Source: a virus. Taken from it: a stretch of 16,533 bases of DNA. The position numbers and the translations under genes are program-made. The stretch lies in the UHGV virus genome UHGV-1601610. One strand, written 5' to 3'. Below, piece after piece: positions 16,062-16,178 of the stretch. The notes under the pieces were generated by a model. The model was not told the DNA's origin. It searched no databases and was given only the letters and a program-made list of their open reading frames with translations. Position 1 is the first letter of the stretch. The number at the start of each line of letters is the position of its first letter.

Positions 16062-16071
16062 CAGGTGAAAA
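16062..16071. repeat. cosB-like direct repeat copy 1 (plus CAGGTGAAAA; minus TTTTCACCTG); candidate terminase small-subunit binding site
   Basis: Exact 10-bp direct repeat with copy 2, 77 bp apart, between the cos core and the Nu1 start. Assignment as an R-type site is inference from position. Confidence 0.4.
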
Positions 16072-16138
16072 TCAGGTTTATTTATATATTTCAATTAATT
16101 GCAAACTGGTCTAATGACAGGGAGAAAAAAATATTGTA

Positions 16139-16148
16139 CAGGTGAAAA
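16139..16148. repeat. cosB-like direct repeat copy 2 (CAGGTGAAAA)
   Basis: Exact copy of 16062-16071. Confidence 0.4.
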
Positions 16149-16165
16149 GAGAAATAACTTTTAAT

Positions 16166-16178
16166 TATCAATAAATTA
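16166..16178 (+). promoter_or_regulatory. IHF-consensus site (TATCAATAAATTA matches WATCAANNNNTTR) inside the AT-rich cosB-like region
   Basis: All specified consensus positions match. Lies between the cos core and the direct repeats, analogous to the IHF site I1 in lambda cosB. AT-rich context raises the chance of a chance match. Confidence 0.4.

Follow-up and report, generated by a model that had tools for sequence, protein, structure and literature searches.

A candidate cosB region of TerS and IHF sites in the terS leader of a cdtI-type phage

The short leader that separates the cohesive end from the small terminase gene in a lambda-like phage genome carries two exact copies of a 10-bp sequence and a perfect IHF consensus, which raises the question of whether this leader is a cosB and of how far it follows the plan known from lambda. 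The question has consequences beyond one phage, since it is the packaging specificity of a cos phage that determines which DNA enters its capsids, and this specificity thereby governs interference and cooperation among co-resident lambdoid prophages, hijacking by PICI satellites and the transfer of toxin genes such as cdt. It also concerns a widespread cos region whose small-subunit family is still named a "domain of unknown function". The stretch analysed here, referred to as the window, comprises 16,533 nucleotides of the virus genome UHGV-1601610.

The reading that best explains the comparative data, to which we assign a probability of about 65%, is that the leader would act as a cosB composed of putative TerS sites and IHF sites, in whose two-module array the two repeats would be sites b and d. 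The 185-bp stretch from the cohesive end to terS would then be the packaging initiation site of a cdtI-type lambda-like cos phage, in which the winged helix-turn-helix of a DUF1441-family TerS may bind short R-type sites while IHF would bend the DNA between them. The resulting TerS-IHF-DNA complex would place the gpA-type large subunit for nicking cosN, and each module of about 77 bp may be likened to the R3-I1-R2 unit of lambda. The positions of the elements, their conservation, periodicity and covariation, and the fold predicted for TerS are read directly from the comparisons described below; from them we infer the binding of TerS, the binding of IHF and the share of each site in the function.

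The cohesive end, the terminase genes and the repeats

The phage strand is the minus strand of the window, and phage coordinates (p) are obtained as 16242 minus the window coordinate. All features are collected in Table 1. Over its last kilobase the window shares 99-100% identity with the phages cdtI, Tritos and HannyBb, and the deposited genomes of cdtI and Tritos begin at 16241 on the minus strand with GGGCGGGAGCGT, directly followed on the phage strand by CGCGG. As judged from where these phage records start, GGGCGGGAGCGT is a lambda-like 12-nt cohesive end, similar to lambda's GGGCGGCGACCT.

The terS ORF, of 175-179 codons according to the start chosen (15518-16045/16057), lies directly upstream of terL. 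In a Pfam scan its product scores 151.7 bits against PF07278 (DUF1441; E=1.7e-44, cut-off 35.1), and it matches PHROG 141, "terminase small subunit", with E=7.9e-65. Both the profile score, above the curated threshold, and its position immediately ahead of a gpA-type terL assign it to the DUF1441/PHROG 141 family. The original prediction had called the small subunit Nu1, an identification that had to be abandoned: the scan returns PF07278 only, and lambda Nu1 itself matches PF07471. The ORF may open at p185, the first ATG, or at p197. Because the upstream in-frame ATG at 16057, which is the start used by the cdtI GenBank record, is ACG or ATT in relatives, the GGAG-preceded ATG at 16045 is the likely true start, giving a protein of 175 aa.

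Table 1. Features of the cos region and the terminase genes, ordered along the phage strand
Feature	Window position	Phage position	Strand	Remarks
cosQ-like heptamer GGGTCCT	16264..16270		minus	about 29 nt left of the nick; read from sequence
Cohesive end / cosN core, 12 nt, GGGCGGGAGCGT	16230..16241	p1-12	minus	start of the deposited cdtI and Tritos records
Conserved block CGCGGAAAAAGACTAGTTTTTGCATTTCCAT	16199..16229	p13-43	minus	from cosN to the first R-type site; lambda I2 position
Putative site a, GGCGGCGGCAGCATGT	16183..16198	p44-59	minus	lambda R3 position; triplet run
I1 (IHF consensus)	16166..16178	p64-76	minus	TAATTTATTGATA on the phage strand, TATCAATAAATTA on the window plus strand
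Putative site b (copy A + 4 nt), TTTTCACCTGTACA	16135..16148	p94-107	minus	R2 position; exact 10-mer
Putative site c, CTGTCATTAGACCAG	16106..16120	p122-136	minus	R1 position
I1', second IHF-like site, CAATTAATTGAAA	16089..16101	p141-153	minus	8/9 specified consensus bases; 77 bp from I1
Putative site d (copy B + 4 nt), TTTTCACCTGCCAG	16058..16071	p171-184	minus	just 5' of the ribosome-binding site; exact 10-mer
Shine-Dalgarno GGAG of terS	16052..16055		minus	6 nt ahead of the ATG at 16045
terS, small terminase subunit, 175 aa, DUF1441	15518..16045		minus	Pfam PF07278, PHROG 141
terL, lambda gpA-type terminase large subunit	13410..15509		minus	Pfam GpA_ATPase E ~1e-81, GpA_nuclease ~1e-86

Between the cohesive end (16241) and the terS ATG (16045) lie both repeats and the IHF motif. 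As had been predicted, CAGGTGAAAA occurs in the 16.5-kb window as an exact match at 16062-16071 and 16139-16148 only, the copies being 77 bp apart from start to start; on the phage strand it reads TTTTCACCTG, at p94-103 (copy A) and p171-180 (copy B). The predicted IHF site was likewise recovered, TATCAATAAATTA being the only full match in the window to the consensus WATCAANNNNTTR. The 5' flank of its core on the same strand is AAATAACTTTTAAT, so that the exact core is accompanied by the AT-rich 5' segment of a candidate IHF site. The offsets from cos given by the original prediction (about 70 for the IHF motif, about 95 and 175 for the repeats and about 195 for the start codon) agree with p64-76, p94-103, p171-180 and p197. 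When the 184-bp leader is shuffled, an exact direct 10-mer appears in 2.4% of mononucleotide and 3.9% of dinucleotide shuffles, and a perfect IHF consensus in 2.3%; each of the two is thus only modestly unlikely alone, and the convincing part is their conservation in relatives. No promoter or terminator overlapping the repeats was found.

Conservation of the leader and its layout in relatives

Close relatives, defined by a TerS at least 85% identical to that of the window, were drawn from IMG/VR (about 160 loci) and from a small number of genomes, and gave 60 distinct leaders. The most invariant stretch of these leaders is TCACCTGCCAG (p174-184), consisting of the 3' part of copy B and the four bases that follow it, which is kept in 57 of the 60 and within which p178-184 is invariant; I1 matches the consensus perfectly in 55. 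An exact copy A is found in 33 of the 60 leaders; its core is polymorphic (C98T in 8/60, C100G in 9/60), and the variants TTTTCAGCTG and TTTTTACCTG are found among prophages whose TerS is at least 99% identical. This polymorphism means either that the site tolerates change or that many such prophages are decaying. Both exact copies are present in the inducible phage cdtI. Lack of the repeats in relatives with the same terminase had been named as the outcome that would speak against the prediction; on this test the core of copy B held, while exact conservation of copy A did so only in part. The functional motif also needs to be redrawn with respect to the full decamer CAGGTGAAAA first proposed, because the outer T's of both copies vary among close relatives: what is conserved on the phage strand is TTCACCTG with four 3' bases, TACA in copy A and CCAG in copy B. 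Within the E. coli subgroup the mean conservation of sites a and c reaches 96.4% and 97.6%, respectively.

The prophage type is widespread in E. coli: of 5426 complete genomes of this species, 885 contain a match to nearly the full length of the cos region, covering at least 80% of a 271-bp query at identities down to roughly 90%. Binning most likely went wrong for the contig JAGZPX010000007.1, which has been assigned to a metagenome-assembled genome labelled "Veillonella parvula" and in which the TerS is 99% identical and the leader is the full E. coli-type one.

TerS homologues are found throughout Enterobacterales and beyond. An alignment was made of 21 leaders from about fifteen genera, with TerS proteins 50-100% identical to that of the window (Escherichia, Scandinavium, Yersinia, Rahnella, Rosenbergiella, Morganella, Xenorhabdus, Providencia, Proteus, Rouxiella, Edwardsiella, Erwinia, Pantoea, Trabulsiella and Buttiauxella). 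These leaders align nearly gap-free, with a, I1, b, c, I1' and d in fixed columns, in which site a is aligned by position with CTGTCAGCAGCAGGTG, GGGACACCACCACCTG and similar sequences, and site b with TTCAGGTGACAA, TTGAGGTGACAG, TTGACCTGATGAA and similar sequences. At the offset of I1, at least 8 of the 9 specified IHF bases are found in 57% of the 21 leaders (2% of shuffles), and relatives of several genera have the consensus at -132/-133 from the ATG. The same degree of match is reached by I1', at a fixed offset of -56, in 48% of the leaders (3% of shuffles), and I1' is perfect in Trabulsiella and Buttiauxella. Likewise, Providencia and Xenorhabdus loci have an unchanged TTTTCACCTG at -26, as does the Providencia phage PSTCR8lys, with a TerS of about 56% identity. 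The predicted presence of a cosB-type region between cosN and terS is thereby supported by the record ends of cdtI and Tritos, the retained IHF offset and the homologous, covarying sites at which both cores are located. The layout first proposed was nonetheless incomplete, as the elements at the R3 and R1 positions and the second IHF-like site had been missed and the alignment displays six elements.

The conserved block CGCGGAAAAAGACTAGTTTTTGCATTTCCAT is, in the leader alignment, the best conserved non-coding stretch across genera, with many invariant columns; it contains the near-palindrome AAAAAGACTAGTTTTT.

The spacing of the six elements is regular. I1 and I1' are 76-77 bp apart, the spacings within a-I1-b and c-I1'-d are equal, and the best of the 91 autocorrelation lags tested falls at 76-78 bp in 11 of 17 lineage representatives with a TerS at least about 50% identical; in the more distant Gifsy/Sakai-type leaders no consistent lag was found. 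As read from the alignment, the leader is composed of two putative R-IHF-R modules of about 77 bp, a-I1-b and c-I1'-d, and the 77-bp spacing of the repeats would be the period of this duplicated module. The pair most likely stems from an old tandem duplication. In Trabulsiella the two modules are identical to each other at 55 of 78 positions. For the window alone, the similarity between modules is reached in 7 of 1000 shuffles with the 10-mer included and in 155 of 1000 without it, and is therefore not significant once the 10-mer is set aside; because the self-similarity of the window is owed to the 10-mer, the case for duplication rests on the periodicity of the whole family and on Trabulsiella.

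These comparisons bear directly on the idea that the exact 10-mer is merely a chance repeat in an AT-rich leader, devoid of specific function. Such an origin would be in keeping with the 2.4-3.9% of leader shuffles that yield a 10-mer, with the variable outer T's, with the polymorphism of copy A and with the existence of a second exact direct 10-mer nearby (TGACGAGCAT at 16287-16296 and 16401-16410, 114 bp apart, left of cos). The near invariance of copy B, together with the location of both cores at position-conserved, lineage-covarying sites in 21 leaders, already disfavours chance, which we regard as highly improbable.

A different function could be envisaged for copy B, whose end is separated by 2 nt from GGAG and by 12 nt from the ATG at 16045. 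In NRG-class relatives, base pairing is possible between CACCU and an AGGUG ribosome-binding site, and the Providencia leader folds at -8.7 kcal/mol. Copy B would in that case be an RNA-level leader or anti-Shine-Dalgarno element for the translation of terS, and its likeness to copy A would be incidental. However, an RNAalifold analysis of 19 leaders reveals no base pair that is conserved around copy B and the ribosome-binding site, the window leader folds worse than its shuffles (z=+1.14), and the ribosome-binding site of the window, GGAG, cannot pair with CACCUG. Moreover, the motif recurs 77 bp upstream, far from start codons, and no Rfam match was obtained, all of which makes a role in translation very unlikely.

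The extent of the functional region is a separate matter, as only the first module (a, I1 and copy A) might work as cosB, with copy B and I1' as leftovers of the duplication that are kept for other reasons, for instance as the 5' leader of terS. Leaders of the Gifsy-2 and O157 Sakai types, which have a, I1, b and c and in which neither a second IHF site nor a site d is clearly recognisable, are compatible with this, as is the smaller contribution of R1 relative to R3 in lambda (PMC9026076). Nevertheless, no other element of the leader is as well conserved in the E. coli subgroup as copy B, distant genera carry it unchanged, and it changes in concert with site b across classes, which would be unexpected of a relic; a cosB limited to the first module is hence considered unlikely. 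Under the preferred reading, all six elements would belong to the cosB.

Covariation of the sites with TerS and its predicted fold

The motifs of the sites differ across lineages and are alike within one lineage. They read GAGGTGACAG / CTGTCACCTC / TCACCTGACAG in the Providencia type, GACCTGATGA / TCATCAGGT / GAGCTGGTGA in the type represented by locus L247, GAGGTGTCC / GGGACACCTC in the Pantoea-Trabulsiella type and CATCTGTGCA / TGTACAGGTG / GAGCTGTACA in Buttiauxella. The covariation of b with d is matched in 5 of 720 class-level permutations and that of the reverse complement of b with c in 14 of 720, and a cruder test of concerted change gives p=0.0005; these statistics are indicative rather than exact, since the lineages are related by descent and the motif classes number only six. 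In the NRG, DRA and DRR lineages site c is an inverted copy of b (8-10 of 10 positions). In the window, site c matches the inverted site b at 5 of 10 positions and is not an inverted copy, and site a matches the repeat core at only 6 of 10, which is no resemblance.

The motif classes coincide with residues 25 and 27 of TerS (HRD, NRG, NRS, DRA, DRK and DRR), which are located at the start of the predicted recognition helix, the second helix of the domain. By changing together by lineage and tracking these two residues, the sites appear to behave as recognition sites should. The existence of several motif classes is also consistent with the suggestion of the original prediction that an R motif unlike CGTTTCC of lambda would reflect a different specificity.

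According to an AlphaFold2 model, residues 12-60 of TerS form a strand, two helices, a two-stranded wing and a further helix (mean pLDDT 80.5). Foldseek searches with the N-terminal domain retrieve winged-helix DNA binders of the RacA, BldC, MerR and excisionase types, as well as 7lwr_A, a homologue of the DNA-binding domain of lambda Nu1, with a target-normalised TM score of 0.68 and an rmsd of 2.8 A. The N-terminus of TerS is thus predicted to be a winged helix-turn-helix that resembles the DNA-binding domains of lambda-like TerS proteins. By sequence, the comparison of TerS with lambda Nu1 is not significant (hhalign probability 1.2%), and a profile search of PDB sequences with TerS gave a marginal MarR match only. 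A literature search on DUF1441 found no functional study or binding data for any TerS of this family.

An O157:H7 prophage (locus L324, 760-1000) has the cohesive end GGGCGGGAGCGT and a left block identical to those of the window, together with a DUF1441 TerS that is 37% identical and a different inverted R pair, ATGTCGAA / TTCGACAT. A shared cos end combined with a divergent TerS and a different R motif fits the location of specificity in these sites. Its DNA similarity to the window breaks off at copy A, near 16145, and this suggests that cosB contains a mosaic joint.

Covariation of this kind is also relevant to the identity of the bound protein: instead of TerS, the large subunit, a nucleoid protein of the host or a regulator encoded by the phage might, for instance, occupy the sites. 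The CACCTG/CAGGTG cores of site d, common to the HRD and NRG classes of TerS, would be accommodated by such a protein; the correspondence between motif classes and the residues that open the TerS recognition helix, and the O157 prophage just described, point instead to TerS. No promoter-like site was detected either, and binding by another protein seems quite unlikely.

Comparison with known cosB regions

In lambda, cosB has the order R3-I1-R2-R1 with R2 inverted, and the bend introduced by IHF brings R3 and R2 to a Nu1 dimer. The cosB regions of phi80, 21 and Gifsy-1 follow the same plan, and N15 has a single R3 (Feiss and colleagues; PMC9026076, PMC4669245, PMC4856287). The general principle of R sites and IHF acting beside cosN is already established, and the region described here adds no new principle.

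As in lambda, the candidate cosB is bordered directly on its left by a 12-nt 5' cohesive end and precedes the small-subunit gene. The IHF consensus has the same orientation and a similar offset (p64-76 here, about 74-91 for lambda I1), and R-type sites flank it at similar distances. A perfect WATCAANNNNTTR, at a fixed offset in relatives, thus stands between the first two putative R sites. The large subunit is of the gpA type, and the DNA-binding domain of the small subunit is, as predicted here, a winged helix-turn-helix. The differences concern the R motif (TTCACCTG... instead of CGTTTCC), the number of elements (four R-type positions and two IHF-like sites compared with three R and one I1), the direct orientation of the two recognisable copies, the GGC triplet run at the R3 position and the family of the small subunit (PF07278 instead of PF07471). 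Four features set the region apart from a cosB of the known kind: the different motif, the second IHF-like site with the fourth R position in a two-module arrangement, the lack of an evident set of three like R copies with R2 inverted, and the triplet run. The mirror image of lambda R3-I1-R2-R1 that had been predicted is retained for copy A, which occupies the R2 position, and lost for copy B, which would be a fourth site beyond R1.

Such a set, which strictly defines the lambda-type cosB, is not seen in the window, where b and d are direct and a and c match at only 6/10 and 5/10; because the repeats are direct and site a is not an inverted copy of them, the inverted pair that lambda has across I1 is not evident in the lineage of the window. 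Three like copies with R2 inverted are present in relatives of the NRG, DRA and DRR classes and in Gifsy-2.

Within the DUF1441 family, Gifsy-1 and Gifsy-2 share with the window the type of TerS (checked for Gifsy-2) and the conserved left block. The Gifsy-2 leader contains GTCAGCACTGAA, an IHF-like site and then the inverted pair TTCAGTGTCGAA / TTCGACACTGAA. It differs from the window in its TerS, about 40% identical, in the Gifsy R motif TTCGACACTGAA and in that neither a second IHF-like site nor a fourth R position is clearly visible. PSTCR8lys and the prophage leaders of Providencia, Xenorhabdus, Proteus and Yersinia, which make up the NRG class, have the six-element two-module layout in the same columns, although their TerS is about 56% identical, with NRG instead of HRD at residues 25-27, their sites b and c form the perfect inverted pair GAGGTGACAG / CTGTCACCTC and their site a reads CTGTCAGCAGCAGGTG. 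N15 resembles the window in its lambda-like cohesive end and in depending on TerS for recognition at the R3 position (PMC4669245); in contrast to the window, it possesses one critical R site and no IHF site. The region described here is more complex than that of lambda, not simpler.

A more far-reaching proposal, which we put forward tentatively and hold to be somewhat less probable than its converse, is that the cosB of the cdtI clade would be a tandem R-IHF-R pair with four TerS sites and two IHF bends, supporting a doubly looped initiation assembly larger than that of lambda, and that the clade has split into six or more recognition classes, each change of the sites being accompanied by a change of TerS residues 25 and 27. 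If true, these phages would offer a natural read-out of the DNA-recognition code of small terminases, of which the triplet run at the R3 position would be a conserved part. The comparative data provide a site map for footprinting and a set of natural specificity classes, and a cosB more complex than that of lambda may serve as a test of the IHF-loop model of terminase assembly.

The element at the R3 position (alignment columns 48-66) is always a tandem trinucleotide run in which a C is invariant at every third base, the unit varying by lineage as (GGC)n, (CAG)3, CATCATCAGCAG or (CAC/ACC)n. In the Providencia type, site a equals the decamer of site d with a CAGCAG insert (10/10 in four lineages). 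The description of site a as an R decamer split by a 6-bp insert was discarded as a general rule, as it is not distinctive across classes and gives 6/10 in the window.

Finally, some observations concern the surroundings of the cohesive end. A 51-aa ORF (16168-16323, minus strand) spans the cohesive-end site and is probably not a gene; the matching stretch is annotated as a hypothetical protein in HannyBb. The heptamer GGGTCCT is presumably cosQ-like, by its likeness to the lambda cosQ sequence. The 7-bp cosQ is described as highly conserved (PMC4669245). In many relatives of the window, AAGGTACTCC stands in place of GGGTCCT.
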